DNA of 50,005 nt from a virus (taxonomy: Duplodnaviria > Caudoviricetes). How positions within the stretch are numbered: position 1 is the stretch's first letter; each line of letters begins with the position of its first letter. A program made the translations under genes and the position numbers. Positions 2,443-45,980 of the stretch are shown piece after piece. The DNA lies in IMG/VR virus record IMGVR_UViG_3300028610_000159, positions 1 through 50,005 of that record. One strand, given 5' to 3'. The notes under the pieces were generated by a model that made no database searches, had not been told where the DNA came from, and saw only the letters and a list, made by a program, of their open reading frames with translations.

Positions 2443-2554
2443 TTGACTTCTTCCAGAAAAGTAGTATATTGTAATATATGAAGACTGAGACTATGAAATA
2501 TAAACCCCGAACCCGGAGCAATTCCTCTCAGTCTTCTTTCAGGTAAGGGGTTTT
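2443..2554 (+). promoter_or_regulatory. Sigma70-like promoter plus leader attenuator-like element 1
   Basis: TTGACT-16-TATATT; ATG 2478; gaagactgaga (2480-90) is complementary to tctcagtcttc (2526-36) inside the aaacccc/ggggttt hairpin. Confidence 0.65.
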
Positions 2555-2574
2555 CTAATTAAAGGAGTAGTATT

Positions 2575-2844
2575 GTGGAGCAAAGTGAGCCAATGAAAGA
2601 CTCGGAACTTGACAGATATTGTTCTCAAGTGGAAACAGAAATGTCATCACTAAATCACGCAATCAAGAAGCTTATAGGTGGTTTGGAGAAATTCAGAGTG
2701 CCGGGCACTAAAATCGAAGAAAAGCCCACACTCGACACCCAGCATCAGATGTCTTCCCATGCTAGCCAGCTATGCCGATGGGCTGACGGAGCCAAAGAGA
2801 TGCGTGAGTCACTTGAATGTTTGATGAATGAACTGGAAATATAA
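2575..2844 (+). CDS. Hypothetical protein
   Basis: AAGGAG RBS; GTG start. Confidence 0.6.
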   Translation: MEQSEPMKDSELDRYCSQVETEMSSLNHAIKKLIGGLEKFRVPGTKIEEKPTLDTQHQMSSHASQLCRWADGAKEMRESLECLMNELEI

Positions 2845-2960
2845 ACCAGTACCCCACCGAGAGTACGGCCTGGACGGCTGGTTTCGCGAAGTCCCCCGGT
2901 GATTTACAAGTCAATAATGAGAGCGGCGGCGTGTGATGTCGCCCCAACAGGAGTAATAGA

Positions 2961-3422
2961 ATGAGTAGGCCAATAAAATTCCGGGGCAAAGTGCTTGAGG
3001 GTATGTTGTCTGTAGATAAATATGTAAACTCATGGATTTACGGCGATTTGTCACATCTGGGCGACGATTTCTGTATTTCGTCGATAGACAGTGAGGAGCA
3101 GATAGAAAATCCTGAGTTAATAATCCCCACAATGCAAGTCGATCCTGCCACCGTAGGGCAATTCACCGGCCTATCCGATAAGAACGGGAAAGAGATATAC
3201 GAGGGGGATCGGTTGAAATGCAAGTGTAAGAAACGGCCTCTCGCAATGCCTCCTAGGGGCAAGCAGAAGTATGTTTACAAAGAAGCTTTAGTTGAATGGT
3301 GGAGTTCTTCTTGCGCACATGGGTATAGGTTAAAGTTCAAACATGGAACAATGATGGCCAAGCAGGGTGGATTGAACACGATGGAAGTTGAAGTAATCGG
3401 CAATATCCACGAGGATAAATAA
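2961..3422 (+). CDS. YopX-family protein
   Basis: RPIKFRGK...TVGQFTGLSDKNGKEIYEGD...EVIGNIHE. Confidence 0.92.
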   Translation: MSRPIKFRGKVLEGMLSVDKYVNSWIYGDLSHLGDDFCISSIDSEEQIENPELIIPTMQVDPATVGQFTGLSDKNGKEIYEGDRLKCKCKKRPLAMPPRGKQKYVYKEALVEWWSSSCAHGYRLKFKHGTMMAKQGGLNTMEVEVIGNIHEDK

Positions 3423-3462
3423 AAGAGGCGATTACATTTAGCCCCGAACTGATAGGAGAATA

Positions 3463-3660
3463 ATGATAACCCCACAACAGAAAATATCCAGTCTCTTGAA
3501 GAAGCTCGACGCCATCACCTTAGAGTGCTCTGAGAGGGGCAAGGAGCTAACCAGAATCAACGTTCTCGTAGAAAAGGCCCCAATGCCGGACGAGACTAGA
3601 GAATCGCTTAGAGAGCCGCTGGAGAGCTATGTGAAGCGGTGCGGGAAAGGAAAATTATGA
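3463..3660 (+). CDS. Hypothetical protein
   Basis: AGGAG RBS; coupled to the next gene. Confidence 0.55.
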   Translation: MITPQQKISSLLKKLDAITLECSERGKELTRINVLVEKAPMPDETRESLREPLESYVKRCGKGKL

Positions 3661-3923
3661 AATCTTATTCAGAAGTTATCAAAGCAATTAAGAAATGGAC
3701 TAGGCACAATAGAGTAAAAAAGTATCTCTTTGTGGCGGAGCTTGCAAGGGGACGCATGGGAACCGATAATGACGACGATCTCTACTGTGTCAACGAGGCT
3801 GCTTTCGACGCCTTTTTCGACATAACCGCCTTACGTAATGCTTTCAGACGTGCAAAATCGAGGTATAACCAACACGATGCTTATGTAGAGGATTTATTTG
3901 ACGGGGATGGAGAAAGAATGTAA
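3657..3923 (+). CDS. Hypothetical protein
   Basis: ATGA overlap with the previous stop. Confidence 0.55.
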   Translation: MKSYSEVIKAIKKWTRHNRVKKYLFVAELARGRMGTDNDDDLYCVNEAAFDAFFDITALRNAFRRAKSRYNQHDAYVEDLFDGDGERM

Positions 3924-3945
3924 CCCCAACCAAGAAAGAATAAGA

Positions 3946-4434
3946 ATGGCTAAGAAACGAAAGAAGAAGCCACACACGCCCAGAAGCAGAGTAAAGGCAT
4001 TTCTGCGCAGGTTAAGCTTGCATTCAAGAGAACGTGCAGCAGTTATGAAAAAGGCAGGGTACAGATGTCTTGATTGCGATGCCAAGCAAAGCAAGGCCAG
4101 AGGCAAAGAAGTTAAAGTAGAGGCTCACCACAATCCTCCGATTGACTGGGATGGGATTGTAGACTTGATATTTGAACGAATACTGGATGCACCACAAGAA
4201 ATTTTATGTGAGGCTTGTCACCGCAAAGCCCACGAAAATAAGAAACTTCTAACAAAAGAAATAGTAGAGACTTACCGCAACCCCGACAAGCGGTGCGTCT
4301 ATCCGTTTGAGCCGAATCCGGTGGGTTATTGCTGGGCGTATGCTCACCACGTTGACGGAACAGAACGATTTGAGGATATGGGCAAGATATGTCCAAGCTG
4401 TGAATATTGGAAAGAAAATGAAGCGACATGTTAA
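3946..4434 (+). CDS. HNH endonuclease-like protein
   Basis: YRCLDC...VEAHH...ILCEACHRKAH. Confidence 0.75.
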   Translation: MAKKRKKKPHTPRSRVKAFLRRLSLHSRERAAVMKKAGYRCLDCDAKQSKARGKEVKVEAHHNPPIDWDGIVDLIFERILDAPQEILCEACHRKAHENKKLLTKEIVETYRNPDKRCVYPFEPNPVGYCWAYAHHVDGTERFEDMGKICPSCEYWKENEATC

Positions 4435-4669
4435 AATCTATCTCGACTTCCACGGCTATACAATAGCAGACATAATAATCTGCGAAATGCCTGAGTGCGG
4501 TGCCGTAGCCGTAGACATACACCATATCGATCCGCGTGGCATGGGTGGTAATCCTGATAAGGATGTAATCGAGAATCTTGTAGGCTTATGCCGTGACTGC
4601 CATGATAAAGCCGAAGCTGGAATAATTACGAAAGATGAATTGAAGCAGCTAACCCACAGCAGGAGATAA
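4418..4669 (+). CDS. Small HNH endonuclease
   Basis: CEMPEC...DIHHIDPRGMGG...NLVGLCRDCH. Confidence 0.85.
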   Translation: MKRHVKIYLDFHGYTIADIIICEMPECGAVAVDIHHIDPRGMGGNPDKDVIENLVGLCRDCHDKAEAGIITKDELKQLTHSRR

Positions 4670-4673
4670 AGAC

Positions 4674-4844
4674 ATGAAAGCAGTTTATAAATGCCCGAAG
4701 TGTGGTACATTTACTGGCAAAACAGGCGTTTATTATGCAGGAACCTACGCCCACAAGTGCCCGCATTGTAAACAAAAGGTTCAATTACATGTTACCGGGA
4801 GTAGTCACTGGACGATTAGTTCGACAACTGCAACGTGTAAGTAG
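4674..4844 (+). CDS. Small Zn-ribbon protein (56 aa, not in ORF track)
   Basis: MKAVYKCPKCG...HKCPHCK; GGAG RBS. Confidence 0.6.
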   Translation: MKAVYKCPKCGTFTGKTGVYYAGTYAHKCPHCKQKVQLHVTGSSHWTISSTTATCK

Positions 4845-5293
4845 CCCCCGGATAAATGAAAATAATTTCAAGAAAGCAAGGAGATGAAATACACAGATGA
4901 ACAGATCGAAAGGCTCATATTCCACTGTAAATGGATGTTAGCTGAAATGGATTACCGTAACACCCAAACAGGTATAGATTCGTCGGATTCGCCAGAGGTT
5001 GCGGAGTTGAGAGAATTGTTAGCGGTGTTGAATGAACCAATTATATAAACAACTACTCCAAAGAAAGAAAACGCCCAAAGCAATGTTCCTGTTGGCAAGG
5101 CTATTCGGCAAGAAAGCCCAATTTACGGACTCAGGCTATCAATTAACTGTTTATTACTTCCGTGAACAAATATTTGTGGCTAAATTTGAGAAAAGATTTG
5201 ACAAATGAATCTCATAGGGTAAACTATAATTTTACATAGCACTTTTGATAATAGATTCGGAGGTGTAATATGAAGCCAATGTAAAGAAGAATA

Positions 5294-5385
5294 ATGAATA
5301 AAAGCGTACTGAGACAAGTGAAAAAGTTCAACAAAGCCCGAAACGGGGAGTTCCTAGTACGCTCTCCCCATGCTGGGCTTTTTTT
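5294..5385 (+). promoter_or_regulatory. Leader attenuator-like element 2
   Basis: ATG 5294; agcgtact (5303-10) is complementary to agtacgct (5356-63) in the loop of aaagcccg..ggggag/ctcccc..tgggcttt plus T-tract; TTGACA at 5198. Confidence 0.6.
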
Positions 5386-5401
5386 ATGTCTGGAGTGAAT
5401 T

Positions 5402-5725
5402 ATGAATGATAGAGAAAAATTGATTAAGAAATTCGCTGGAGCAATAAACGAAATGAGCAGGGAGGAAGATTCTAATACGCCAGATTTCCTTTTGGCGGAG
5501 TATTTAGTATTTTGCTTGGAAGCTTTTGAGTTGGCAAGCAATAAAAGAGAGGTATGGTTCGGTGTCCACCTTGACATCTTGAACGACTGGCCGGAATTGA
5601 TTATGACTGCTATTGGTGAAGCCTCTATGTGTTGGAGCGAGACGCCCAAGGGGACTTTTGATAGTACAAGAGCACAAAAAATAGGAATAAAACTTCTCGA
5701 AGACATCAAGTCTCAGCCAAAATAA
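5402..5725 (+). CDS. Hypothetical phage protein
   Basis: SREEDSNTPDFLLAEYL motif; GGAG RBS. Confidence 0.7.
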   Translation: MNDREKLIKKFAGAINEMSREEDSNTPDFLLAEYLVFCLEAFELASNKREVWFGVHLDILNDWPELIMTAIGEASMCWSETPKGTFDSTRAQKIGIKLLEDIKSQPK

Positions 5726-5806
5726 AACAAATATCCCATTTATAATATATCAAGCCTTCACCATGCGTAGGAAACCCGGTATGTTTAAAATTAAGGAAAA
5801 GGAAAA

Positions 5807-6016
5807 ATGATAGCAAAAATGTACTTACATAGTTGCAAAGAAGACAACTACGGCTTAGCTGAGGAACTGAATTTGCCGGAAAACATCCACCAAGAATTTA
5901 GCTATGCTTTATACGAAGTTGAGTTCGATGTTGAAATTGACGAAAAAACAGGAGATTGCGTAATCTGGAAGGTAAATGGAAGAGCCGTAGCCCCGAACAA
6001 ACCCATAACCCCATGA
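5807..6016 (+). CDS. Hypothetical protein
   Basis: AAGG RBS. Confidence 0.6.
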   Translation: MIAKMYLHSCKEDNYGLAEELNLPENIHQEFSYALYEVEFDVEIDEKTGDCVIWKVNGRAVAPNKPITP

Positions 6017-6026
6017 ACCACCTATT

Positions 6027-6128
6027 AAAACCGAGGGCAAGTAGCACAAATTCCGGTTCGGCTGGAAGAATGAAGATACTCTGACATTCACGCTATTCAA
6101 CATCCTGACAGATAGCCCTCGGTTTTTT
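6027..6128 (+). ncRNA. Candidate multibranched structured RNA
   Basis: 12-bp closing stem aaaaccgagggc/gccctcggtttt with inner stems gtagc/gctat, ttccgg/ctggaa and gaatg/cattc. Confidence 0.45.
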
Positions 6129-6156
6129 AAATATTAACCAATACAAGGAGATTATT

Positions 6157-6504
6157 ATGAGACTAACAGTTCCGACTTCAAATATTAACTGGGTTGAATG
6201 GGCTGGCGGTGTACTTTTTATGGAGTTTGATACCGATAAATGCGTTAGATATGAGGATGTCCCGGAGGGGTATGCTCTCGCAATGGTTCAAGCTCCATCA
6301 GCAGGCTCCTTTTTTAACCGGTATATCAAGGGCCAGTACCGATATACTGTGATAGATGCCCCACCTGAAAAACACGAAAAGCCTGACGAACTAACTCGGC
6401 TACAACATGAATATGACAGCACACGAGGCTTGTGGTGCGTTGACAAAAACCCCGCAGACGTAACTCTGGAGTGGATTCGAGAAAACGCCTTTCAATTGAC
6501 ATAA
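6157..6504 (+). CDS. KTSC-domain protein
   Basis: SNINWVEW...LFMEF...RYEDVP...APSAGSFFNRYIKGQY. Confidence 0.85.
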   Translation: MRLTVPTSNINWVEWAGGVLFMEFDTDKCVRYEDVPEGYALAMVQAPSAGSFFNRYIKGQYRYTVIDAPPEKHEKPDELTRLQHEYDSTRGLWCVDKNPADVTLEWIRENAFQLT

Positions 6505-6519
6505 ATAAAAAGTTTTTAA

Positions 6520-6661
6520 TTGTAATTATCTTGAGACTGTGGTATAATGCAGGAAATGAACGGTACAAAGCAAATTCAAACAGCATCAACAATACCCTCT
6601 GGAGAAGGTCCCGCATTGCTTTGGTTATGCCGTTCAGCCTTTTTCATTGGGTATTTTTTTT
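6520..6661 (+). promoter_or_regulatory. Extended -10 promoter plus leader attenuator-like element 3, upstream of the replication gene
   Basis: TTGTAA-17-TATAAT with TG; ATG 6556; 6557-73 is complementary to 6616-36 in the loop of aataccc..ggagaagg/cctttttc..gggtatt plus T-tract. Confidence 0.7.
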
Positions 6662-6670
6662 GGTTTGACT

Positions 6671-7429
6671 ATGGGAAACAGTCCTGCATTTCAATATTAT
6701 CCCGCAGACATGGCAACTGACCCGATTGTTCAGTTCTGGACGATGGAGCAACTAGGATGCTATCATGCGATGATTGATTTTTTGTGGCAAAATTGTGGGA
6801 AAATTGACGGAAATTCCAGCGATTTTCCAGCGAAACTCCGGCGAATTTTCAGAGTTTCTCACGCAAAAAGGGCGCAAAAATTGTGGGAAAACATCATAGA
6901 AAAGTTTGAAATAAAAGATGGAATAATAAGCCATAAGAGAGTTGATAAAGAGATGCAAAAGCAGGTAGAATCAAGACTTAGGAGACAAAGGGCCGGGGAA
7001 AAAGGTGCGGAGAAACGTTGGAAAAAAGATATTGAGGGTGATAGCAATGCCATTTTTTCGGGTATGGCATTGGATAGCTCTTCAACTCCAACTACATCTT
7101 CTTCTTCAACTCCAACCCCAAAGGAAGATATTGAATTGAGTTGTAACAACAAGGGAAATTCTTCTGATTCGTTGGTTTTGGGTTTGAGAATAAAAGAGTT
7201 GTTGGAGGAATCTTTCAAACCATTTAACGCCCGTGAGCAATCAACATTCACAAACATTTCTGCGCACCTTGCCGGATACGCAGCGGGTAAATCCCCGATG
7301 GCGTTCATGGGGAAATTACAGGGGTGGGTGAAATCTTCCAAATTGCCGACAATCAAGAAACCAAAGGCTATGTTTGTCGATATAGTTAAAAAAGAAACAG
7401 GCTTTAAGAAACAGGATAAGATATTATAA
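6671..7429 (+). CDS. Phage replication initiator, DUF1376/YdaU-like
   Basis: PAFQYYPADM...EQLGCY..IDFLW...SHKRVDKE...AGEKGAEKRW; S/T/P linker. Confidence 0.8.
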   Translation: MGNSPAFQYYPADMATDPIVQFWTMEQLGCYHAMIDFLWQNCGKIDGNSSDFPAKLRRIFRVSHAKRAQKLWENIIEKFEIKDGIISHKRVDKEMQKQVESRLRRQRAGEKGAEKRWKKDIEGDSNAIFSGMALDSSSTPTTSSSSTPTPKEDIELSCNNKGNSSDSLVLGLRIKELLEESFKPFNAREQSTFTNISAHLAGYAAGKSPMAFMGKLQGWVKSSKLPTIKKPKAMFVDIVKKETGFKKQDKIL

Positions 7430-7757
7430 AGGAGATTGAAATGCCAATCGCCCACAAACATATTATGTACGGATGCCAGTTTAAATGCGGTAATGACCAT
7501 ACGTTATCTTATGAAGCCACCAAAAATCACGAACTGAGATGTTGGTACAACCCTGATAATAAGACTTGTAAATCATGCAGGTTTGAAGAGTACGGGCTTG
7601 ATAATCAAAGTGTGACTATAACCAGATGGTGTACGGCTCCCAACGGAGAAGATATTATAAAAGCCAAACACGATGAAATTTATGTCGGCAGAAACGTAAA
7701 ACCAGTAGAGCATTGCGAAGCATGGGAACCAATTTAAGAAACAGGATAAGATATTAT
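7403..7757 (+). repeat. 25-bp direct repeat (7403-7427 and 7733-7757) flanking one gene
   Basis: tttaagaaacaggataagatattat occurs twice, 330 bp apart. Confidence 0.9.
7441..7737 (+). CDS. Cys/His-rich hypothetical protein
   Basis: YGCQFKC...HELRCWYNPDNKTCKSC; AAGGAG RBS. Confidence 0.7.
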   Translation: MPIAHKHIMYGCQFKCGNDHTLSYEATKNHELRCWYNPDNKTCKSCRFEEYGLDNQSVTITRWCTAPNGEDIIKAKHDEIYVGRNVKPVEHCEAWEPI

Positions 7758-7772
7758 GACAGACAGGAAAAG

Positions 7773-8729
7773 ATGTGGATAGTACCCAAAACGTTATCTC
7801 ATTTTGTACCGGATACGGCGGGCTCGACATTGGACTCAAAAGAGTTTGGCCTGATTGCCGAACAATCGCTTATGTGGAGATCGAAGCGTTCGCGATCACG
7901 AACCTGGTCGCAAAGATGGAACAAGGTAAGCTGGATTCGGCTCCTATCTGGACGGATATTAAAACATTCGATGGACGCCCGTTTCGTGGAAAAGTACACG
8001 GATTCACTGCCGGATATCCCTGTCAGCCTTTTTCAGTCGCGGGGAAGCGAAGAGGAAAAGAAGACCCTCGACACCTTTGGCCGTATCTTGAAGAACACAT
8101 CCGTACAATTAGACCTCTTTGGTGCTGGTTTGAAAACGTCGGAGGGCACCTCACAATTGGATTCGATGAGGTTTTCAAGAGCCTTCGAGATTTGGGTTAC
8201 AAAGTTGAGGCAGGACTGTTTACAGCGTCAGAAGTTGGCGCACCTCACAAGAGAGAACGGTTGTTTATCCTGGCCTACAATGACGACAGCGAATGCAGAA
8301 CACGGGCCGTGCAAAACAGAGTTGATAAACGGCCGATTCAAGAGGGTCAGCGAGATAACAGGCGAAGTTTACGGGTCGAAGTTGCAGGACGTGGTGATCA
8401 ACTGGCAATCCCCCAGAGCCAACGATGCGGAGAAACGGGGTCAGATAGCGGACGATGTTCGGAACGGACTGCCATCGCAAGTGAACTGGCCGACACCACA
8501 AGCCAGCGAATACAAGGGCATGAGCCAAAGGGGAGTAGCCAGCCCGAAAGACAGATTGACCAATTGCGTAATAACAGATGGCCTGCCCGCCCCGGACAAG
8601 AGCAATACGACTGGGAAGAACCGAGGACAGTTGAATCCGGCATGGGTAGAACAATTGATGGGTTTAAATCCAGGGTGGACGAACTTCGACTACTGGGTAA
8701 CGGAGTTGTCCCGGAACAAGCAGAGTTAG
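7773..8729 (+). CDS. Overlapping-frame MTase partner (beta-like: WPTP repeats and motif IX)
   Basis: WPTMTT, WQSPRA, WPTPQA and LNPAWVEQLMGLNPGWT; frame open along nearly the whole MTase gene. Confidence 0.7.
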   Translation: MWIVPKTLSHFVPDTAGSTLDSKEFGLIAEQSLMWRSKRSRSRTWSQRWNKVSWIRLLSGRILKHSMDARFVEKYTDSLPDIPVSLFQSRGSEEEKKTLDTFGRILKNTSVQLDLFGAGLKTSEGTSQLDSMRFSRAFEIWVTKLRQDCLQRQKLAHLTRENGCLSWPTMTTANAEHGPCKTELINGRFKRVSEITGEVYGSKLQDVVINWQSPRANDAEKRGQIADDVRNGLPSQVNWPTPQASEYKGMSQRGVASPKDRLTNCVITDGLPAPDKSNTTGKNRGQLNPAWVEQLMGLNPGWTNFDYWVTELSRNKQS

Positions 8730-8764
8730 CATTAAGGATATTATTGGGAAAGATAGCGGAATGA
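7775..8764 (+). CDS. C5-cytosine DNA methyltransferase, catalytic (alpha-like) chain
   Basis: Motifs I FCTGYGG, IV GYPCQPFS, VI FENV, VIII HKRERLF, X RLLGNGVV. Confidence 0.93.
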   Translation: MDSTQNVISFCTGYGGLDIGLKRVWPDCRTIAYVEIEAFAITNLVAKMEQGKLDSAPIWTDIKTFDGRPFRGKVHGFTAGYPCQPFSVAGKRRGKEDPRHLWPYLEEHIRTIRPLWCWFENVGGHLTIGFDEVFKSLRDLGYKVEAGLFTASEVGAPHKRERLFILAYNDDSECRTRAVQNRVDKRPIQEGQRDNRRSLRVEVAGRGDQLAIPQSQRCGETGSDSGRCSERTAIASELADTTSQRIQGHEPKGSSQPERQIDQLRNNRWPARPGQEQYDWEEPRTVESGMGRTIDGFKSRVDELRLLGNGVVPEQAELALRILLGKIAE

Positions 8765-11774: not shown

Positions 11775-11810
11775 AAAAAGGCCCAACCATTGGGCCCTTG
11801 CTCTTTTACT
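11773..11810. terminator. Probable bidirectional terminator between convergent genes
   Basis: A-tract, ggcccaa/ttgggcc hairpin, T-rich tract. Confidence 0.6.
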
Positions 11811-11982: not shown

Positions 11983-12174
11983 TTATATTCCTGCTGTATC
12001 GCCGATTAAATCTCTTGCTTCGTCCATCTGTTCGATATTCTGTTCCATAGCTTCTCCCTTTTCGGAGTACTGAAGGCCTTCGGGCAGATTATCAAACGCC
12101 TCCTGTTCTTCTGAAATAATATCCTCAAGCTTAAACCAAATCGACTCTAATCGAGCTCTTCTGTCTTTATTCAC
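11983..12174 (-). CDS. Hypothetical phage protein
   Basis: GTG start after GGAG; EEQEAFDNLPEGLQYSEKGE. Confidence 0.7.
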   Translation of the reverse strand: MNKDRRARLESIWFKLEDIISEEQEAFDNLPEGLQYSEKGEAMEQNIEQMDEARDLIGDTAGI

Positions 12175-12272
12175 GATAAATACTCCAATAAAAGTGCAAT
12201 TAGCATACCCACCACAACGGCGAGCTAGGTTAAGAATAGTTTGGTTACTAGTCGCATGATTATCCTTTTTCA

Positions 12273-12458
12273 TTAGGCGAGTTTCATTAAGTCCTTTGCA
12301 ACAGAAATGTCGTAGGTATCTTCAAGCCAATGCCAGATATCAAATTTACTTGTTCCAATGGGGAAATGTTTCCATTCCGTATCAATGTTGTCATCCTTGT
12401 CTACAGGTATATCGCCAAGTTCCTGCCACATCTTTTTAACTTCTTTAGTGTCCTTCAT
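12273..12458 (-). CDS. Hypothetical phage protein
   Basis: WQELGDIPV...HFPIGT..FDIWHW. Confidence 0.7.
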   Translation of the reverse strand: MKDTKEVKKMWQELGDIPVDKDDNIDTEWKHFPIGTSKFDIWHWLEDTYDISVAKDLMKLA

Positions 12459-12533
12459 AATTCTTTCCCTTAATTAAATTAGTTTCAGCCTTTGATTGAG
12501 TTGGTTAGCCGTGTGCATAGGCTTAGCATACCG

Positions 12534-12695
12534 TTACTTGGTTGCAGGTGGTGTTTCATTGCTATTGAATATTACTTGTGCAGCCAGATTATTACACTTA
12601 GCAAGCCCACACTTCTCAGGTCGTCTTGTACTCACAGTCTTAATTTCTGCGATTCGCCCTTTGTTTTGTTTGTGGCCATTACATCTGAATCTCAT
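12534..12695 (-). CDS. Small hypothetical protein (53 aa, not in ORF track)
   Basis: GAGG RBS; MRFRCNGHKQNKGRIAEI... Confidence 0.45.
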   Translation of the reverse strand: MRFRCNGHKQNKGRIAEIKTVSTRRPEKCGLAKCNNLAAQVIFNSNETPPATK

Positions 12696-12723
12696 AATAC
12701 ATCCTCTCAAATAAATAAAATAG

Positions 12724-12849
12724 TTAGTCTTGTTCCTTTACATCTTTACAATCCCTGACTACACCCATACAGCCAACTTCACTACAATGACAAGGACAAT
12801 CAGCCACGCACCCATTACAACAACATTCGTAACAATTTTCATTATCCAT
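12724..12849 (-). CDS. Cys-rich 41-aa peptide, metallothionein-like (not in ORF track)
   Basis: MDNENCYECCCNGCVADCPCHCSEVGCMGVVRDCKDVKEQD; AAGGG RBS 6 nt upstream. Confidence 0.5.
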   Translation of the reverse strand: MDNENCYECCCNGCVADCPCHCSEVGCMGVVRDCKDVKEQD

Positions 12850-12911
12850 TTCAAACCCTTTCGATAAAATAGTTACGCAAAGGCCCGGTTAAAGGCCCTT
12901 GAGTGATTATT

Positions 12912-13502
12912 TTATCCCCATTGCTCAGCCATAGCGTCAGCGAAACCTTGACAAATTATCGATCTCTTTTTACCCCTGTCTTTTGATGGTGACATTCTGT
13001 GTATTCTCGCTTCCCGTCCCTCTACGATGTTTGTTGGTTCAAGTAGCGGCAAGCCCTTGATCCTTAAACAGGTTGCTTTTGTCTCCCCGTGCCCGAATTG
13101 CCAAGGCTGGATAATTTGATCGGGCTTGTACTCTATAATTTCTTGGGCATATCTGTGCATTATTGGACTCTCTGCAACCACTTTATCGCAAGGCGCGTCG
13201 AATAAATCTTTAAAAAATATAGACCCTGCATACATTTTGCCCCATCTGTCATAGTTTTTGTGCCCGTCCGGGAGATAGAGCCATCTTACGCCTGAGTTAC
13301 ACGTATATGTGCAAGGGGGGAACATCAATATCATATCCCACCTCTGACTATATGCCAGTTTAACAGCGTCCCCGATAATGTGCGGTCCCGGCGATTCAGT
13401 CGGCAACAAGTCACAACTAATCGCATCATGGCCTTTAGCAATAAACGCATCACGGACACGGCCTGAGAATTCACAAGGCACGAAGACTTTCATCTTACGC
13501 AT
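12912..13502 (-). CDS. Phage C5-methyltransferase-like protein
   Basis: KVFVPCEFSGRVRDAF...SCDLLPTE...FPPCTY...QPWQFGH..TKATCL...ADAMAEQW. Confidence 0.8.
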   Translation of the reverse strand: MRKMKVFVPCEFSGRVRDAFIAKGHDAISCDLLPTESPGPHIIGDAVKLAYSQRWDMILMFPPCTYTCNSGVRWLYLPDGHKNYDRWGKMYAGSIFFKDLFDAPCDKVVAESPIMHRYAQEIIEYKPDQIIQPWQFGHGETKATCLRIKGLPLLEPTNIVEGREARIHRMSPSKDRGKKRSIICQGFADAMAEQWG

Positions 13503-13677
13503 ACTTTAACTCCCTGAGATTAGCATAATAGGCCTTAGCTTCGCACACAGCAGCATCGGCGACATTCTCAAGGGCTTTACCGTCAATCTCAAACAAGGCC
13601 GACACCATTTGACTGATGGTTGTGGAGTCAACACCGGAAAGATACATTTCTTTATAGTATGCAATTGCTGTTTCCAT
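13495..13677 (-). CDS. Hypothetical protein
   Basis: GGAG RBS; first gene of the leftward operon. Confidence 0.6.
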   Translation of the reverse strand: METAIAYYKEMYLSGVDSTTISQMVSALFEIDGKALENVADAAVCEAKAYYANLRELKYA

Positions 13678-13717: not shown

Positions 13718-13816
13718 AGAATATAACACAGATTCCTAATTTGTCAATAGAAAAAATAGAATAATATTAAAATAAAAGAAAAAGAACTTGACAGCGCATA
13801 CTCAACCTGCTATAAT
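13718..13816. promoter_or_regulatory. Divergent sigma70-type promoters
   Basis: Rightward TTGACA(13788)-17-TATAAT(13811) with TG extension; leftward TTGACA (13742-47, minus strand) with TATATT/TATTCT. Confidence 0.8.
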
Positions 13817-13869
13817 ACCCATTAAATAAAGAAACGAACTGGAAACTATTTTCAATCGTATGCGCTTAA

Positions 13870-14022
13870 ATGGACACACTCGGAGAAATAATTGAAGACA
13901 AAGCCAAGGATGAAATGGACGAGCATATCAAAGAACTGAACAGACTGGCTTTACTAATCGAACCGAATCCACGTATATTTGAACTATTACAGGAACTAAC
14001 GGGGATAATAGATAATGGCTGA
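13870..14022 (+). CDS. Small hypothetical protein (50 aa, not in ORF track)
   Basis: Open frame between the promoter and terS, overlapping the terS start. Confidence 0.45.
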   Translation: MDTLGEIIEDKAKDEMDEHIKELNRLALLIEPNPRIFELLQELTGIIDNG

Positions 14023-36759: not shown

Positions 36760-36777
36760 AGATACAAGCGAGTAAAG

Positions 36778-41400: not shown

Positions 41401-43571
41401 AGAAAGTGAAACTTACCGACGATATGCTATTATCGCTGGAACTGGCTACGCGGGACGAAAATTACTTAGATGCAATTGGGCGACTGGAGGGTTGGGATAT
41501 AGATGGAAAGATTATAAGGTACCCGGTAGATTGGGGGTTTGCCGAGAAGATAGCTGAGATGAATAAACTCTTAAATGACACTAGGTCAGATGATATGCTG
41601 GTAGCGTTGGCAGATTTCACTAATCAGTTATCGAATGGTCCGTTTAAGAGTCTCATTAACGAAGCTTCCAACGCTCTTGTAGGCCACGACATAGCGAGGA
41701 TAAAGAATCAATGGCCTCGTCCTCGTACTGGCAAGCTGAGCGTTTCAGGCGCAAAGGATATTTCTGTTGCCCCAGAACAAAGAAGTATTTTGCAACCTCG
41801 GATCGGAAGCTCGAAGCCAATTCAACTTAATCCGTGGTCTGAAACTGTTTTGGGATCAATGGAAACAATAACTCATTTTAACGGCATGGCGATACCATTA
41901 AGGAATGCAAGGGCACTCGTAAGCTCGCAGGGTTTTCAGGATGCGATGATTTCTGCTGATAGAGAAGAAGAGTTGAGGAACATGATAACCCTTATCAGGA
42001 GGATACAAGGCTCTCAAACCAGCCGAGAAGTAGTAGAAGTTCTTGGCTCTAAGGTTAGGAATCTGTTTACTGTTCAGGTTTTAGGCTTCAGAGTTAGCAC
42101 AACAGGCACGCAGGCTATGTCAAACCCAATGTTCTTTGCAGTCACAAGAACTGTTTCTGTGGTTCCGAGGCTAACGATATCAGAGGCCATAAAGAGATTG
42201 AAAGAAGATTCGCCTCCGATAAATCTCAGATGGAGAGGGCGAAGGATTGGAGCAGAGATAGGTGCGATAGCGTCTCAGGAAACATTTGATTTATTGATCT
42301 TCGGCAAGTCAACAATTTTTTCGGGCAATGTGGCTATGGCTCAGCATGTAAAAGGCGATCAGGTTGCTATCGCTATAGGATACATTCATAACATAATCCC
42401 TGAAATTCTAAATAAGCCGAGAAACGGCAAGAATATTTCCCTGGAAGAGTGGGATGGGAATAATGTTGCCGATTTGCCAGAGATGAAAGATATAGATTCC
42501 AGAGAATTTCGAGAAGCCGCTGCACTTAGAACTGAATATGCAACACGAAAAGGACAGCCGATGTTTGATGTTCTCGACAGGTCAGTTAATCTATCGAGTC
42601 CAAGTCCGTTAGTAAGAATGGTGACGATGTTCAGGTCGGCATTAGAGGCTCAGCAAAATTTGTTAGTGTCTGAGTTGAGTAGATACAATAAAATAAAGAA
42701 TCCAACACTTAATGATAGAAAGAGATTGTGGGCGGCTCTATCTGCCGTAGTCGTATCAGCCGCACTTGTAGCAATCTGGAAAAAATCGTTCAAATGGGGC
42801 GTGAGGTTTGGCTCGAAGAAAGTTAAGGAGCAGCTTGGAATATTCCAGTTTGACGAAAAGAAAGATATTGAAACAGTCGTCACCGAGATAGGCAAGGACA
42901 CGGCGAAGAATCTCGTCAATGTAAGTCCTGCTGGTAAAATCATAGTGGCCGTAGGAGAGAAGATAGCCAACAGAGTTGCACCGGATGGTTACAATTGGAA
43001 CCGGGAGCCTTGGACAGACCCGATGTTAGATTTCGTAGTTAATGCAAGGGATGGGATTGCTGCAATTGCAGACTCAACATTTGATGTGACAAGATTGGAT
43101 AACTTCGTAGAAGATATTACTCCCGAAGACATTAAATTTAACGAAGAACTTGCCGAAGAAATAGCAGGCGACTTCATGGAAGCCATTGAATTTACGCTTG
43201 ATATGGGAACGACATTGCTGAAGACGCCAGTAAAGGCTCCATTACAGGAATTTGTTAAGCCCGTATTCAGAGACAGTCAGATTAAAATTATAAGAGAAGT
43301 TGGTTTCAGCGACGTTGATGATCCTCAAGAGTTTTCCCAGAGAGTATTTGATTTGTATGAGAGAAGATCAGAGTTGAGGCAAAAGTCAAAAACAGAAAGG
43401 CTGTCTGATCAGGAACAAAGAGATTTGAAGTGGTTAGATAAATTCGCGACCAAAAGCAATTCCGCTGCCGACTCAGCTAGAGATGCAGAAACAGAAAGCA
43501 TGAGGCATATTTTGTTTGGACAAATGGAAACATTGTTGGATTTAACAGAGAGCGTGATTAGCGATATTTAA
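38406..43571 (+). CDS. Large internal virion/DNA-ejection protein (gp16-like position)
   Basis: 1721 aa; helical, with hydrophobic segments and a K/A-rich region. Confidence 0.7.
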   Translation: MAEIDLENGVSARRLASDEISIDEDIIIDDPMRDRFDTGISELVDPSEAPIITDEQIDDLIVPALAAPMYTPLVEMMDVLNRNLWDVNRIENAQKRLDNTLVPDKINPPDPTQLQKNLNEWWVTEGFRYPRFVLDEIGITGGMAPISFSQGIIEAQKENALTQVQTVKEALGVDAIGDPLRGVVGREFESDLAIATKFISPDSEIEDKKVEEKLESFDDESIEAIKQIVDSNVSMFDEEVVSAVNFEVNVRDKEEKFLEFMQESSKNIAIILWGTDFFNRLGADIPEFIDRSQGKGDLSENLEAISRIRAQVRVADPSLAIAFTAGFGNTAAELVLFALLPDPGKITAFASLSPAAKSAIGVGSRAAFTTLLKAPEEDETLEQRAAEMTKAGIAGAVTGAALSKIFGTANKIFDKLKNKKFSEQADIMLANNPQITKTKEELIEILKFLKSNDAAKFKDAISLKELRIPVKARVVKGARIGAAEIEKPAKIVKAGVEKAVKGIAKTKEAIAVQAAKEALKIAKGVPAKAVPVEKAKPTKILTMKEAKTFEQSNLVTGETGDVRIVADPPTIANIKTAEKKIATLKTQRNQLAADKKQALSKARGIAKAQVGKAKAVEIEKKAKAVGAEKERKIKAIEVEIAKKQVSIATLKEKFGIKLETTIEGFRAKIDKINAATEFKEELRDDAISMVQAIPKELQPNFLKRATDIGKQKQKPETSLKKVFKLNDEIRAGVEKFGQRQEIKNAKDFVKRLFKKHRLGNQPLGKLPEPQRSQILDIVNNTDFKKLTEAKEISLKASQAHFKKMAGQIASGFESLDAEELKDLQLPRKLSQELRRLEQKTVADMTTSDIRAIYDSLMALAKQAELKGKLLTKEGLKPLSDIDVEKEVSPKPSAIKKAQEPIEREKKTGLVAGAKRTGGLVRRFVSVDNYKLDTLADISTTNESKGIVKILDTDLHSGQRDMAANQLAMSQIMEEGFSKAGLKNVNQLSKKKTTGKLANQKVKLTDDMLLSLELATRDENYLDAIGRLEGWDIDGKIIRYPVDWGFAEKIAEMNKLLNDTRSDDMLVALADFTNQLSNGPFKSLINEASNALVGHDIARIKNQWPRPRTGKLSVSGAKDISVAPEQRSILQPRIGSSKPIQLNPWSETVLGSMETITHFNGMAIPLRNARALVSSQGFQDAMISADREEELRNMITLIRRIQGSQTSREVVEVLGSKVRNLFTVQVLGFRVSTTGTQAMSNPMFFAVTRTVSVVPRLTISEAIKRLKEDSPPINLRWRGRRIGAEIGAIASQETFDLLIFGKSTIFSGNVAMAQHVKGDQVAIAIGYIHNIIPEILNKPRNGKNISLEEWDGNNVADLPEMKDIDSREFREAAALRTEYATRKGQPMFDVLDRSVNLSSPSPLVRMVTMFRSALEAQQNLLVSELSRYNKIKNPTLNDRKRLWAALSAVVVSAALVAIWKKSFKWGVRFGSKKVKEQLGIFQFDEKKDIETVVTEIGKDTAKNLVNVSPAGKIIVAVGEKIANRVAPDGYNWNREPWTDPMLDFVVNARDGIAAIADSTFDVTRLDNFVEDITPEDIKFNEELAEEIAGDFMEAIEFTLDMGTTLLKTPVKAPLQEFVKPVFRDSQIKIIREVGFSDVDDPQEFSQRVFDLYERRSELRQKSKTERLSDQEQRDLKWLDKFATKSNSAADSARDAETESMRHILFGQMETLLDLTESVISDI

Positions 43572-43584
43572 TAAGGAGAACAGC

Positions 43585-44025
43585 ATGGCAAAAGAACAAT
43601 GGAAAAAGGTGGGAGTAATCGCGGCCGTTATAGGGTTGTTAATAACACTGGTGGTTACTGTTACGACAGTGGCATATACAAGCGGCGGGGGTGTGGCTGA
43701 AGTTAAGGGGGATATAAAGAATGTAAAAGAGAATGCCGTAGAGGACAGGGAGGCTATGGTTAAGCTTGAAGGGCGAACAACAAAACTGGAAGTAGAGGCC
43801 AATGAAAGCAAATTAAGGGATGCCCGCACCGCAGTTCAGTATACAAATATCGAATCGTATATGCGAAACGAATCAGACAGGACTAAAGAGATTGCCAGTG
43901 ACCTCAAAGAATATCGTAAGGAACATGAGGCCCAAGTGGAGTCAAACCGGAAAGAACAGCAGTCCCGAACTGAGGCTATAATAAAAATACAGGCACAAAT
44001 TGATAATCTCGAAAGGGTAGACTGA
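43585..44025 (+). CDS. Membrane protein with coiled coil, possibly lysis-related
   Basis: N-terminal TM VGVIAAVIGLLITLVVTV; AAGGAG RBS. Confidence 0.6.
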   Translation: MAKEQWKKVGVIAAVIGLLITLVVTVTTVAYTSGGGVAEVKGDIKNVKENAVEDREAMVKLEGRTTKLEVEANESKLRDARTAVQYTNIESYMRNESDRTKEIASDLKEYRKEHEAQVESNRKEQQSRTEAIIKIQAQIDNLERVD

Positions 44026-44114
44026 TGGCGAAAAAAACGCAAGTGCGCAAAAAGAAGAAATCCGGGGTACGAAGAAAGAAGAAATCCGGCGTCAGGCCAA
44101 AGAAGAAATCTTAA
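44025..44114 (+). CDS. Protamine/histone-tail-like 29-aa peptide (not in ORF track)
   Basis: MAKKTQVRKKKKSGVRRKKKSGVRPKKKS; TGATG coupling; 24-nt period repeat. Confidence 0.65.
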   Translation: MAKKTQVRKKKKSGVRRKKKSGVRPKKKS

Positions 44115-44256
44115 AATAACCAGCCCCTTATTTTAATTTCTGCATGTTTGTTAAATTTATTTTAACTCAAATCCCCATTTCCCGCCCGCAAACCATGTCC
44201 AGATATGCGCCTCTGAGTCCATTCGTGCTATTCTGGGATATATTCTGAAAAAGAAT

Positions 44257-44411
44257 TTGACATTCGCCCAATCTGTGTTAAGCTATGAATAATGCTTTAC
44301 TCGACATTGACATCAAGTTCCGATAAACCAAAACAAGCCCCTGCTTTGCGCTCAGTTAATGTCGAGTTCACCGGGCCGAGCAGGGGCGATATTGAAGGGA
44401 AAGAGATATGA
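44257..44411 (+). promoter_or_regulatory. Promoter plus leader attenuator-like element 4
   Basis: TTGACA-16-TAAGCT with TG; ATG 44292; 44299-311 pairs with 44355-67 inside gcccctgct/agcaggggc; leader stop overlaps the downstream ATG. Confidence 0.7.
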
Positions 44412-45679
44412 AGTGGATTAAATGTTCCAATAAAATAGAGATAGAGCCAAACGCTTTCAAACTGATAGGGGCGTGTACTAAAAGAGAGGATGAGTCCAAG
44501 ATAGGCTTCTTTGGCTCTGGTTTGAAGTATGCTCTTGCCGTGTTTTTGAGGAATGGCATTGACATCAAAGTATTTGCAGGCAAGCAAGAGATTTCAATAG
44601 GTTGCGTTACGGACAGGCTGAGAGATCAAGAATTTGATGTAATTACTATAGATGGCGACAAAACATCCATGACAACCTCTATGGGACCTAAATGGGAACC
44701 GTGGCAGGCTATACGGGAAGTCTATTGTAACGCATTAGACGAAGGAGGGACCGCCAAAGTAGGCACATGCGAACCTTGTGGTATAGGGGGCGAAACTAAT
44801 ATCTTTATAAGCGCAGAGCATGAAGAAGTCGCTGAGGTTACAGATAATTGGGATAAATACTTTAGCTTCAACCGCGTAGCTTTAGCTGAGTGTGATCATG
44901 GTGCAATCTACGATAGGCTCTATGGTACCGTTTACCGCAAAGGTATTAGATGCGTAAAAGATGATATTACACGTACGCTGTTTGATTACGAAACGTCTAA
45001 AGTAGAACTTAACGAGTCCAGAGTCATAGATAGTCCGTACAGTTTGCCTTTGTATATGTGTAGGGTTCTCGCCAAGAGTGCAGACCAGAGTGTAATTGAC
45101 AAAATCGTTAAAGACAGGGTATCTAAAGAATTCCAAGCAGATTGGGACTATTCTTCGATTGAGTTGAATGGTGAGTGGTTGAAATACTTTGAAGGAAAAA
45201 TTCTCATACCTGAATCTTTCGCAGGACACTTTAGCGTATTAGTAGAGGACGAAAACTCTGTTATTATTAAAAGAAGTCTCATTCTGAAATTGCAAAAGAC
45301 ATTTGGCAAAGAAAAGTTTCGTGCTGTAATGTCAGGTTATTGTGCCGGAAGCGACTATGTAGAATCGAAACCTGACAGGAAACGAGATTACTTACTGAAA
45401 GAAGCAAAGAGTTTTCTGGATCAAGTAGGCTTAAATTGTACGTATGAGTGCAAGATAGTTTCATTTTCATCTAAGAAAATCATTGGCGCAGCCCATGAAG
45501 GTTTAATCTTATTATCTGAAACGCTGTTCGATAAAGGGAAACGGCAAATTGTTCTGGTTATCATGGAAGAATGGGCACATCTTGAGTCGGGCAAAGGAGA
45601 CGAGACGAGAGACTTTCAAAACTTCCTCATGGAACAAATGCTGACCTTACTTGAAAATCAACATGGAGTATTCTTGTAG
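44408..45679 (+). CDS. Circularly permuted GHKL-type ATPase with C-terminal zincin-like motif
   Basis: STK-like CTKR..IGFFGSGLK precedes AIREVYCNALDE; C-terminal MEEWAH. Confidence 0.7.
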   Translation: MKWIKCSNKIEIEPNAFKLIGACTKREDESKIGFFGSGLKYALAVFLRNGIDIKVFAGKQEISIGCVTDRLRDQEFDVITIDGDKTSMTTSMGPKWEPWQAIREVYCNALDEGGTAKVGTCEPCGIGGETNIFISAEHEEVAEVTDNWDKYFSFNRVALAECDHGAIYDRLYGTVYRKGIRCVKDDITRTLFDYETSKVELNESRVIDSPYSLPLYMCRVLAKSADQSVIDKIVKDRVSKEFQADWDYSSIELNGEWLKYFEGKILIPESFAGHFSVLVEDENSVIIKRSLILKLQKTFGKEKFRAVMSGYCAGSDYVESKPDRKRDYLLKEAKSFLDQVGLNCTYECKIVSFSSKKIIGAAHEGLILLSETLFDKGKRQIVLVIMEEWAHLESGKGDETRDFQNFLMEQMLTLLENQHGVFL

Positions 45680-45691
45680 GAGAATAATAAT

Positions 45692-45818
45692 ATGTACGGC
45701 ATAAGACATTCATTTCTGGAAACTCTCGTCCGAGAGGTCTCCCTCCTTTTTCAAAACCAATGCAATGTCAAGGCCCCGATCCGGTCTTATGCCGACTGCG
45801 GATCGGGGCTACTTTATT
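45692..45818 (+). promoter_or_regulatory. Leader attenuator-like element 5
   Basis: AGGAG and ATG 45692; cggcataagac (45697-707) is complementary to gtcttatgccg (45784-94) in the loop of gccccgatccg/cggatcggggc. Confidence 0.7.
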
Positions 45819-45827
45819 GGAGATATT

Positions 45828-45980
45828 ATGCAAACAATACAAGTAACAGATAAACGACACGAACTAATTACAGCCGAGGCGAAACGACAGGGGATCACTC
45901 GTAGAAAGTTGGTATCAAATTTCACCTCTTCTCTCACTACCCGTAAAAGTTTGAAAAAGTGGCTCCGTGAATACTCGTAA
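45828..45980 (+). CDS. Small RHH-like DNA-binding protein
   Basis: MQTIQVTDKRHELITAEAKRQGITRRKLV; GGAG RBS. Confidence 0.55.
   Translation: MQTIQVTDKRHELITAEAKRQGITRRKLVSNFTSSLTTRKSLKKWLREYS

Follow-up and report, generated by a model that had tools for sequence, protein, structure and literature searches.

The window analysed here, 50,005 nt of a viral genome record (IMGVR_UViG_3300028610_000159; Duplodnaviria, Caudoviricetes), carries five short leaders, designated E1 to E5, all of them on the plus strand and located ahead of early genes. Among the latter are a replication-initiator-like gene (6671..7429, plus strand), which displays an N-terminal DUF1376-like domain, lacks a Shine-Dalgarno sequence and has its start at 6671 backed by full-length homologues, and a GHKL-like gene for a phrog_8203 protein (44408..45679, plus strand) whose predicted AlphaFold structure matches Hsp90/HtpG chains of the GHKL superfamily. 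The leaders occupy the early region, at 44.3-45.8 kb and 2.4-6.7 kb of the circular 49.9-kb genome. They had been described in the initial annotation as a genome-wide layer of RNA control in a phage with no obvious repressor. The first expression is too broad, as none of the five lies in the structural module, and the second reflects a Pfam search of the minus-strand module that returned no match.

Each leader comprises the start codon of an upstream ORF, a nearby segment A and a downstream hairpin whose loop holds the complement of A (anti-A). This arrangement, reported in the initial annotation, was confirmed at all five places, with A beginning 2 (E1), 9 (E2), 1 (E3), 7 (E4) and 5 nt (E5) after the A of the ATG and with upstream ORFs encoding 22, 34, 54, 39 and 53 aa, respectively. 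Promoter-like sites were assigned by consensus matching. In E1, E3 and E4 a -10 hexamer is followed by 7 nt and then by the ATG, as previously noted, the hexamer of E4 (TAAGCT) being weak; no promoter of their own was found for E2 and E5. Of the T tracts formerly attributed to every element except E4, those of E2 (7 T) and E3 (8 T) are clear and those of E1 and E5 weak; E4 has none.

The promoter-like site of E1 lies at 2443..2470 (TTGACT, 16 nt, TATATT; 10/12 consensus matches). The upstream ORF (2478..2546) stops 9 nt short of the 3' end of the hairpin (2502..2553; arms 2502-2508/2547-2553), and segment A (2480..2490) can form 11 bp with anti-A at 2526-2536. E2 is preceded, at about 70 nt, by a promoter-like site at 5198..5225 (TTGACA, 16 nt, TAAACT); a Shine-Dalgarno-led mini-ORF of 4 codons (5270-5284) is found between this site and E2. 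The upstream ORF of E2 (5294..5398) is open through the hairpin and stops 3 nt before the ATG of the gene at 5402. Its segment A (5303..5310), the weakest of the five, has 8 nt forming 8 bp with anti-A 5356-5363, which is contained in the 13-nt apical loop of a two-tier hairpin (5333..5388; outer arms 5333-5339/5375-5381, inner arms 5345-5350/5364-5369). E3 displays a promoter-like site at 6520..6548 (TTGTAA, 17 nt, TG-extended TATAAT) and an upstream ORF (6556..6720) which is open through the hairpin and ends 47 nt within the replication-initiator-like gene. The adjoining parts of its segment A (6557..6573, divided into 6557-6565 and 6566-6573) pair with anti-A 6616-6623 and 6628-6636 over 17 bp, including one G.U and interrupted by a 4-nt bulge, in the loop of a terminator-like hairpin (6591..6663; outer arms 6591-6597/6649-6655, inner arms 6600-6609/6637-6646).

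The promoter-like site of E4 (44257..44284; TTGACA, 16 nt, TAAGCT) is absent from the promoter scan list. The upstream ORF (44292..44411) ends with a TGA overlapping the ATG of the GHKL-like gene at 44408 (ATGA). Segment A (44299..44311) forms 10 perfect pairs (44299-44308/44358-44367), or 13 with one G.U, with anti-A 44355-44367 in the loop of a hairpin with 9-bp arms (44337..44387; 44337-44345/44379-44387). The upstream ORF of E5 (45692..45853) is led by a Shine-Dalgarno sequence, remains open through the hairpin and ends 23 nt within the next gene. Its segment A (45697..45707) forms 11 bp with anti-A 45784-45794, the first 11 of the 15 loop bases of a hairpin with 11-bp arms (45773..45809; 45773-45783/45799-45809).

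The plus strand of the window was scanned for exact occurrences of the pattern and compared to 60 dinucleotide shuffles. The strict tier (A of at least 10, stem of at least 7) yielded 3 occurrences against a mean of 0.18, a number reached by none of the 60 shuffles. The loose tier (A of at least 8, stem of at least 6) yielded 16 loci against 8.1 per shuffle and was reached by 1/60, so that the pattern stands above shuffled sequence in its strict form and is common by chance in its loose form. When 1918 windows from both strands were scanned with G.U pairs tolerated, E5 and E4 took ranks 1 and 2 and E1 fell just below the 99th percentile; the pseudoknot score of E3, 41, equals the 95th percentile of that scan. 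By gapped RNAduplex energy, the number of equally good windows among 2000 random ones was 4 for E5, 109 for E1, 237 for E3, 344 for E4 and 1470 for E2: E5 alone stands out, and E2 is unremarkable and weak on its own. When the five 5' segments were combined with the five loops, the cognate pairing was the unique best of 120 permutations.

Related leaders were sought in 20 metagenomic loci containing a homologue of the replication-initiator-like gene behind E3. In six of them (L154, L156, L159, L161, L167 and L168), the same leader with other pairing letters occupies the orthologous site. Their A:anti-A helices extend over 12-19 bp including 2-4 G.U pairs, which are valid on the plus strand alone. 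The pseudoknot scores were reached by 0/100 shuffles in five loci and by 2/100 in L168, compared to 3/100 for E3 in the window. A and anti-A co-vary among these leaders: cognate combinations score 31.6 on average and non-cognate ones 14.3 (maximum 21), and among 5040 permutations the identity permutation alone scores best. This co-variation was established by finding helices in each sequence individually and by the permutation test; alignment of the leaders with MAFFT and RNAalifold gave no consensus pairs. Leaders showing these hallmarks were also found before other genes in two cases (L152, 2626-2711; L166, 850-955). In L172, the closest E2 orthologue, the mini-ORF and the large-loop terminator are kept and no convincing A was found. 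An Rfam search of the leaders, including the C4, c4-a1b1 and IsrK models, returned no match.

The six orthologous leaders, L152 and L166 were combined with E1-E5 into a set of 13. An ATG or GTG lies 6-9 nt past the end of a -10 box in 11/13 leaders, 10 of which also have a -35 box, and A begins 0-2 nt past the first base of the start codon in 9/13. The frame of this conserved start codon is devoid of stops up to the 3' end of the hairpin in 10/13 leaders, compared to 0/13 and 3/13 for the other two frames; the corresponding numbers of stops are 3 against 26 and 19 (P ~2e-6). A single in-frame stop is found 8-9 nt short of the hairpin end in E1 and L154, and the upstream ORF of L167 has 2 codons only. 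The end of the upstream ORF falls within -31 to +47 nt of the start of the next gene in 12/13 leaders; in L161, as in E2, this distance is 3 nt before the gene. These stops are too scattered for a single uniform coupling mechanism. With anti-A held unpaired, it adjoins the 3' arm of the enclosing stem with a gap of 0-1 nt in 10/13 leaders, and in E5 the gap is 0 nt between the stem and the 5' side of anti-A. Such a gap is obtained by chance in 46/139 cases, which by our own binomial arithmetic gives a probability of about 0.0015 for the observed 10/13. Anti-A never overlaps stem bases. This abutting geometry is no less compatible with a coaxial pseudoknot that coexists with the hairpin than with an anti-terminator.

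The leaders probably constitute a genuine and as yet uncatalogued RNA switch that is linked to the loading of ribosomes. The sole sequencing run that contains this DNA was made from DNA, and transcription starts, termination and translation were therefore all deduced from sequence. The explanation that we tentatively favor, without granting it even odds, is a translated and mostly leaderless upstream ORF that runs through an attenuator hairpin and whose start codon is locked by a pseudoknot between the RNA 5' end and the loop. Each element would lead an early transcript whose 5' end coincides with the AUG or GUG or precedes it by a few bases; in E2 and E5 the start codon would be supplied through a Shine-Dalgarno sequence. 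The short ORF would cross a GC-rich, mostly terminator-like hairpin and end close to where the real gene begins. A ribosome loaded on the 5' start codon during leader transcription would trail the polymerase and melt the hairpin, permitting read-through as well as ribosome delivery to a downstream start often lacking a Shine-Dalgarno sequence. Prevention of hairpin formation by a ribosome translating near a terminator is described in PMC5021804 and PMC4824070. Once the loop is made, anti-A could pair with A beside the start codon, and the resulting helix, stacked on the stem of the hairpin, would form an H-type pseudoknot and place the 5' end of the RNA at the junction. This would bury the start codon and leave the hairpin intact, so that RNA missed by a ribosome would be terminated or untranslatable and read-through RNA would be closed after the first ribosomes. 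The earlier interpretation is partly supported. The architecture is real, operates at the RNA level on the plus strand and differs in its letters among elements; the conserved 5' start codon and the frame open through the hairpin speak in favor of the role given to ribosome loading, leader translation being presumed.

An anti-terminator switch had been put forward in the initial annotation. In such a switch, early A:anti-A pairing would enclose the 5' arm of the terminator, hinder its closure and cause read-through, until a ribosome or factor on the start codon beside A frees anti-A and termination ensues. Because the polymerase reaches anti-A before the 3' arm, formation of the A helix can come first, and helices of 12-19 bp are hard to accommodate in a loop. 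The A:anti-A state and the terminator are mutually exclusive in nested folding. The two states were compared in ten leaders, L156 being excluded owing to mis-set arms, and are 0.6-4 kcal/mol apart in five of the ten and 7-14 in the other five; the A state is more stable in E1, L154 and L159 and within 0.6-4 kcal/mol of the terminator in E1, E2, E3, L161, L167 and L168. These small gaps in about half of the leaders keep a plain two-state switch viable, even though we consider it doubtful: anti-A shares no stem bases, unlike in classical anti-terminators, the abutment speaks for stacking more than for exclusion, a terminator tail is lacking in E4 and the open frame through the hairpin is left unexplained. 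The same helix, whose end falls exactly at the hairpin stem, could alternatively bury the 5' terminus constitutively at the helical junction and, with no switching, shield early mRNAs or terminated leaders from 5'-end-dependent decay. Base pairing of the 5' terminus stabilises bacterial mRNA, and the predicted transcripts of 9/13 leaders have A starting at +1 to +3. Such a purely protective function is nevertheless unlikely, since it does not explain the conserved ATG/GTG, the open frame or the T tracts directly before genes, and since A of E2 and E5 is far from any predicted 5' end.

A terminated leader or processed hairpin might also accumulate and act in trans: its loop would pair with the 5' ends of transcripts newly initiated at the same promoter and feed back on its own operon. 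Each loop matches its own leader alone, and complementarity of a loop to an upstream segment of the same strand is the layout of seqA and CI RNA of P4 outlined in PMC4825925. We judge this quite improbable: both partners are present on the leader, where intramolecular pairing should win, none of the Rfam models of this type was matched, and no second downstream target was found, the best downstream scores being 10-16 against 20-41 for A, with the one exception of L156. Finally, the inverted repeats could be coincidental, or act at the DNA level, around ordinary terminators, the pairing being functionless. The abundance of the loose pattern in shuffles and the unremarkable duplex energies of four of the five elements are compatible with this, as is a filtered scan of 1.77 Mb of mostly unrelated phage loci which gave 32 hits on the plus strand and 35 on the minus strand. 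Coincidence is already disfavoured, and indeed very improbable, in view of the strict-tier excess, the co-variation of the orthologous leaders, the G.U pairs functioning on a single strand and the frame bias.

Several known systems share part of this organization. In the pyrBI attenuation of E. coli, a short leader ORF likewise crosses an intrinsic terminator just before the gene and the hairpin is prevented by a ribosome close behind the polymerase. Unlike in pyrBI, the ORF described here in most cases begins right at the 5' end and lacks a Shine-Dalgarno sequence, sensing codons or a pause signal are not evident, and pairing between the 5' end and the loop is present. The pT181-type attenuation also involves a rep leader, which contains a terminator and an upstream preemptor segment. 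The latter pairs with the terminator 5' arm and is titrated by a countertranscript from the opposite strand, whereas A pairs with the loop and an antisense promoter was not found in 12/13 leaders. The mRNAs of hok-type type I toxins are also kept closed to translation by long-range pairing of their 5' end. The partner in hok is the 3' end of the mRNA and the fold-back is opened by processing, while the 5' end here pairs with a hairpin loop situated about 50-90 nt further downstream and the genes that follow are replication and recombination genes, not toxins.

In the phage leaders P4 CI RNA (seqA, seqB, seqC), P1/P7 c4 and Gifsy-1 IsrK, a structured segment is likewise complementary to a stretch located upstream on the same transcript, and this arrangement is associated with premature termination or translational activation (PMC4825925). 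Besides the missing Rfam match and second target, the present case differs by its five to thirteen leaders of private sequence, as opposed to one immunity RNA, and by a start codon and open frame without counterpart in those RNAs. Leader-peptide control of plasmid Rep synthesis, as presented in PMC8053102, includes R1 tap/repA with CopA, ColIb-P9 repY/repZ, IncB repBA and IncI2 repR/repA. A small leader ORF ahead of a replication-initiator gene is combined there, as here, with RNA-RNA pairing and a loop pseudoknot, and its translation is needed for, or coupled to, that of Rep. The plasmid antisense RNA originates from the opposite strand; if the proposed lock is correct, the mRNA described here carries its own antisense on the same strand. 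[quoted passage not shown]

Each of the five leaders of the window, all on the plus strand (E1 to E5, at about 2478-2554, 5294-5385, 6556-6661, 44292-44387 and 45692-45818), was recovered by an exact-match script where the initial annotation had placed it. They consist of a segment A near a 5' start codon and of a downstream hairpin whose loop contains the complement of this segment (anti-A). The frequency of the pattern on the plus strand was compared to that obtained in 60 dinucleotide shuffles. In its loose form (A of at least 8, stem of at least 6) the pattern is common by chance, 16 loci being observed versus 8.1 in the shuffles, a number reached in one shuffle out of 60. Stricter definitions, on the other hand, exceed the shuffles: three loci versus 0.18 expected are found with A of at least 10 and a stem of at least 7, and two versus 0.03 expected with a combined length of at least 19, neither number being reached in any of the 60 shuffles. 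When both strands were scanned in 1918 sliding windows with G.U pairs tolerated, E5 and E4 were the two best positions of the genome and E1 came just under the 99th percentile. Comparison of the five 5' segments to the five loops showed that own pairing is always the best, the identity assignment being the unique best of 120 permutations. Only E5 stands out by gapped RNAduplex energies, a measure which is not discriminating. Support is good for E3 and, for E1, E4 and E5, comes from these statistics and from the hallmarks described below, while E2, with 8 bp, is weak and unconvincing if taken alone.

The first and last 136 bases of the window are identical (exact direct repeat, 1-136 and 49870-50005) and the window is the sole contig of its genome record; it is therefore considered as a circular phage genome of about 49.9 kb, and E4 and E5 are consequently located only about 6.5 kb upstream of E1. 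Among sequencing runs, the only one listed as containing this DNA is a DNA run, which may be its source. Nearly all genes are carried by the plus strand. The structural genes occupy about 14-44 kb, and the early region, home of all five elements, begins at 44.3 kb, spans the joined ends and reaches about 11.8 kb. Its products include an exonuclease, an Erf-like annealing protein, a YopX protein, a KTSC protein, a C5 methyltransferase, a radical SAM protein, a replication-initiator-like protein weakly matching DUF1376 (6671-7429, behind E3) and a GHKL-like phrog_8203 protein (44408-45679, behind E4). The confident AlphaFold model of the latter (mean pLDDT of 88.7) matches Hsp90/HtpG chains as best Foldseek results, with an E-value of about 1e-5 and a TM score of about 0.2 only; the protein has no Pfam match and no PDB sequence match, and 492 relatives at an E-value of 0.001 or less in metagenomes and phage contigs. 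No tRNA was found, and five early proteins searched for defence systems gave no match.

Comparative evidence for the pairing originates from the gene located behind E3, whose N-terminal domain has metagenome relatives at 45-73% amino-acid identity. Twenty loci with such relatives were retrieved. Six display the leader design, twelve do not exceed chance, one is too short a fragment and the last one (L162), although reached by only 1 of 100 shuffles, apparently lies within coding sequence. Among the twelve chance-level loci, the upstream region is coding in those that were read, and one (L164) has a short plain leader. The six positive loci (L154, L156, L159, L161, L167 and L168) present the same order of elements: a promoter-like site, an ATG or GTG, A, a large-loop hairpin with anti-A, a T tract and the gene. 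The pairing letters change between loci, and the helices of 12-19 bp contain two to four G.U pairs, which become C.A mismatches if read on the other strand. Cognate pairing scores have a mean of 31.6 versus 14.3 for non-cognate ones, whose maximum is 21, and no other of the 5040 permutations scores as high as the identity. A and anti-A thus co-vary at an orthologous site. This evidence is independent of any alignment, as it relies on per-sequence pairing scores and on the permutation test rather than on an alignment-based count; a MAFFT alignment of the seven leaders submitted to RNAalifold gave 0 pairs, the alignment being too poor. Two further leaders with all hallmarks, L152 and L166, precede other genes. 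The seven orthologous leaders located before the replication-initiator-like gene could serve as the seed of a new RNA family. The replication-initiator-like protein itself is modular: its N-terminal 130 residues are found, at 71-78% identity, in proteins whose C-termini are unrelated, and its C-terminal half recurs behind a different N-terminus (P0123). Homologues support a start of its gene 33 codons upstream of that of the stored call (219 aa).

Thirteen leaders, five from the window and eight from other loci, were then available for comparison. In 11 of them, matching to consensus sequences placed the end of a -10 box 6-9 nt upstream of the ATG or GTG, and 10 also have a -35 box. The spacing of the -10 box predicts leaderless mRNAs in these 11 leaders, the start sites being those given by consensus matching. 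The sequence of L159 starts at its -10 box. E5 and E2 have no promoter at the leader: in the former a Shine-Dalgarno sequence takes its place, and in the latter the ATG lies 9 nt past the end of a Shine-Dalgarno-led mini-ORF. A starts 0-2 nt past the first base of the start codon in nine leaders and 5-9 nt past it in the other four. Read in the frame of the start codon, 10 of the 13 leaders contain no stop up to the hairpin 3' end, versus 0 and 3 in the other two frames, and the stops per frame amount to 3 versus 26 and 19; the probability of at least 10 open frames is about 2e-6. The three exceptions are E1 and L154, where the frame stops 8-9 nt short of the hairpin 3' end, and L167, which is reduced to a 2-codon ORF. 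The leader peptides have no sequence in common, and the short ORF opened by the 5' start codon ends between -31 and +47 nt from the start of the next gene in 12 leaders. A clear T tract follows the hairpin in all eight leaders from elsewhere and, within the window, in E3 (8 T) and E2 (7 T); the tract of E1 and E5 is weak, and E4 has none. These hairpins were missing from a scan for intrinsic terminators because their loops measure 15-51 nt versus the 3-8 nt assumed by the scan. A start signal followed by a frame running into or through a terminator-like hairpin, as expected of a leader-ORF attenuator, is therefore found. Crossing helices are present in all 13 leaders. The gap between anti-A, held single-stranded, and the 3' arm is 0 nt in seven leaders and 1 nt in three, 10 in total, and E5 has a 0-nt gap in front of anti-A; such a junction was found in 46 of 139 chance pseudoknots submitted to the same treatment. 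The predicted fold is that of an H-type pseudoknot, crossing helices being separated by a junction of about 0-1 nt that would allow coaxial stacking.

These shared features led us to propose a translated upstream ORF running through an attenuator hairpin. The reading that we favor, tentatively and at somewhat less than even confidence, is a kinetic gate set by ribosome loading. A ribosome loaded before the loop is transcribed would melt the hairpin, permit read-through and supply the downstream start, which in the window, L167 and L168 is devoid of a Shine-Dalgarno sequence; suppression of terminators by a nearby ribosome is described in PMC5021804 and PMC4824070. Without an early ribosome, the pseudoknot would close the RNA, the helix formed by the 5' end and the loop stacking on the hairpin and burying the start codon. 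The initial annotation had proposed that the pairing, as a pseudoknot or an anti-terminator, competes with termination and is switched by ribosome loading or by a phage factor. This interpretation is partly supported: ribosome loading is retained in the kinetic gate, and the anti-terminator switch itself is considered less probable than this gate. Such a switch is consistent with the nested states of five of the ten leaders whose energies were computed (L156 being excluded, as its arms were mis-set), which lie within 0.6 to 4 kcal/mol of each other, but the states of the other five are 7 to 14 kcal/mol apart. Constitutive protection of the 5' end by the fold and a leader RNA acting in trans are further alternatives.

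The logic of the proposed kinetic gate resembles that of pyrBI-type coupled attenuation, and also the leader-peptide-coupled Rep control of plasmids R1, ColIb-P9, IncB and IncI2, as described in PMC8053102. Unlike the plasmid systems, the leaders have neither an opposite-strand antisense RNA nor a pairing between loop and ribosome-binding site. No opposite-strand promoter-like site matching at least 9 of 12 positions was found in 12 of the 13 leaders, and the minus-strand site of E1 is directed away from A. The loop pairing beside the rep ribosome-binding site, typical of ColIb-P9 and IncB, is likewise absent, the loop pairing here with the 5' end of the leader. As a separate observation, anti-A of L156 shows a second complementarity (11 bp including G.U pairs, 620-630), to the bases that immediately precede the rep start codon; this extra match, not seen in the other 12 leaders, would resemble the P4 seqC target or the ColIb-P9 pseudoknot site. 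Same-strand complementarity is shared with P4 CI RNA and IsrK, as described in PMC4825925. The counterpart of the upstream P4 target (seqA) is present in all 13 leaders, but the second, downstream target (seqC) was not found, the best downstream helix scoring 10-16 versus 20-41 for A, with the exception of L156. The leaders also differ from these RNAs by the lack of an Rfam match. The whole window gave 0 matches at gathering score to C4, c4-a1b1, IsrK or any other family; in E-value mode, the best overlaps within 1800-7000 and 43900-46200 were unrelated families at 16-22 bits versus cut-offs of 31-70. A literature search, within a limited set of texts and terms, yielded no description of a leader pairing its 5' end to a terminator loop. 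Leaders that combine a start codon at the 5' terminus with a frame kept open across the hairpin and with a private pairing between 5' end and loop appear to be uncatalogued. A tRNA-like or attC-like reading was dropped, as neither the defining motifs nor the strand-symmetric features expected of DNA-level sites are present.

The leader was also searched elsewhere. No close phage relative permitting nucleotide-level covariation was found in the GenBank phage collection, and single-protein scans of viral contigs returned nothing close. Relatives reached at most 44% amino-acid identity through the GHKL-like protein, 52% through the exonuclease and 43% among genome contigs, where the best was a Planctomycetota MAG. 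The sole fairly close relative of the structural module is a 23 kb IMG/VR contig (L126), whose large terminase shows 74% amino-acid identity; it is about 64-72% identical to the window at the nucleotide level over several structural genes and differs in the early region, and its terminase gene is immediately preceded by a homologue of window gene 5807-6016. A profile search with the replication initiator found one viral contig, without leader, and the neighbours of the GHKL-like gene in L001 and L002 have no such leader. Among 33 other GHKL-like loci, four upstream and three downstream regions were equalled by at most 1 of 60 shuffles; the start-codon hallmark is absent from the three upstream regions read (L010, L011 and L024). 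Only L172 and L194, out of 25 loci with relatives of gene 5402 located behind E2, fell at or below 1 of 60 shuffles, and the A of L172 has just 7 bp and lies far upstream. The 107-aa protein encoded by this gene (5402-5725; also in L172-L175) belongs to an unnamed, very conserved family of 157 proteins at an E-value of 0.001 or less; among the 120 matches listed, full-length members are 58-79% identical, with DSNTPDF and GEASMCW invariant. As in the window, a mini-ORF led by a Shine-Dalgarno sequence and a large-loop terminator (8 T) lie upstream of the gene in L172. A filtered scan of 172 sequences (1.77 Mb) gave 32 hits on the plus strand versus 35 on the minus strand, and there is therefore no enrichment outside this phage group.

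If the proposal is correct, a compact, protein-free device, reused several times within one genome with an orthogonal pairing sequence each time, would couple early-gene read-through and translation to the loading of ribosomes at the RNA 5' terminus. Translation of replication-initiator genes devoid of a Shine-Dalgarno sequence would be explained. The leaders would constitute a new class of cis-regulatory phage RNAs, missed by sequence-based catalogues because only their architecture is conserved, and would provide ready-made orthogonal parts for synthetic attenuators. A broader picture can be drawn, which we regard as speculative and rather improbable as a whole. Each early mRNA would carry its own same-strand antisense, the loop capturing the 5' end in a stacked pseudoknot of at least one turn and closing the leaderless start codon. 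The gene would be opened only by ribosomes loading during transcription, resulting in a self-timed burst without protein or trans-RNA regulator. A private, fast-evolving address per operon would prevent cross-talk, and the fold may double as a bacterial counterpart of exonuclease-resistant 5' knots.

Several other features of the genome were recorded. A sixth large-loop terminator-like hairpin (6027-6126; 12-bp perfect arms, 76-nt loop, T-rich tail) precedes the KTSC-domain gene 6157; the upstream complement of its loop is limited to 6 nt (5993-5998 with 6056-6061), and no promoter or start-codon hallmark was found. The 270-nt gap before gene 2151 contains nested long-range inverted repeats within 1989-2128 (1989-1999/2118-2128 and 2038-2045/2117-2124). 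A bidirectional terminator-like hairpin with a 10-bp stem and a 3-nt loop (11777-11799) marks the junction of the plus-strand early genes and the minus-strand module, whose four ORFs (11983-13677) have no Pfam match. A strong divergent promoter pair is located within 13720-13866, on the plus strand at 13788-13816 (12/12 matches) and on the minus strand at 13747-13720 (11/12). A 9-bp perfect inverted repeat (13793-13801/13858-13866), with one arm in the promoter spacer and the other just before the ATG at 13870, may be an operator.
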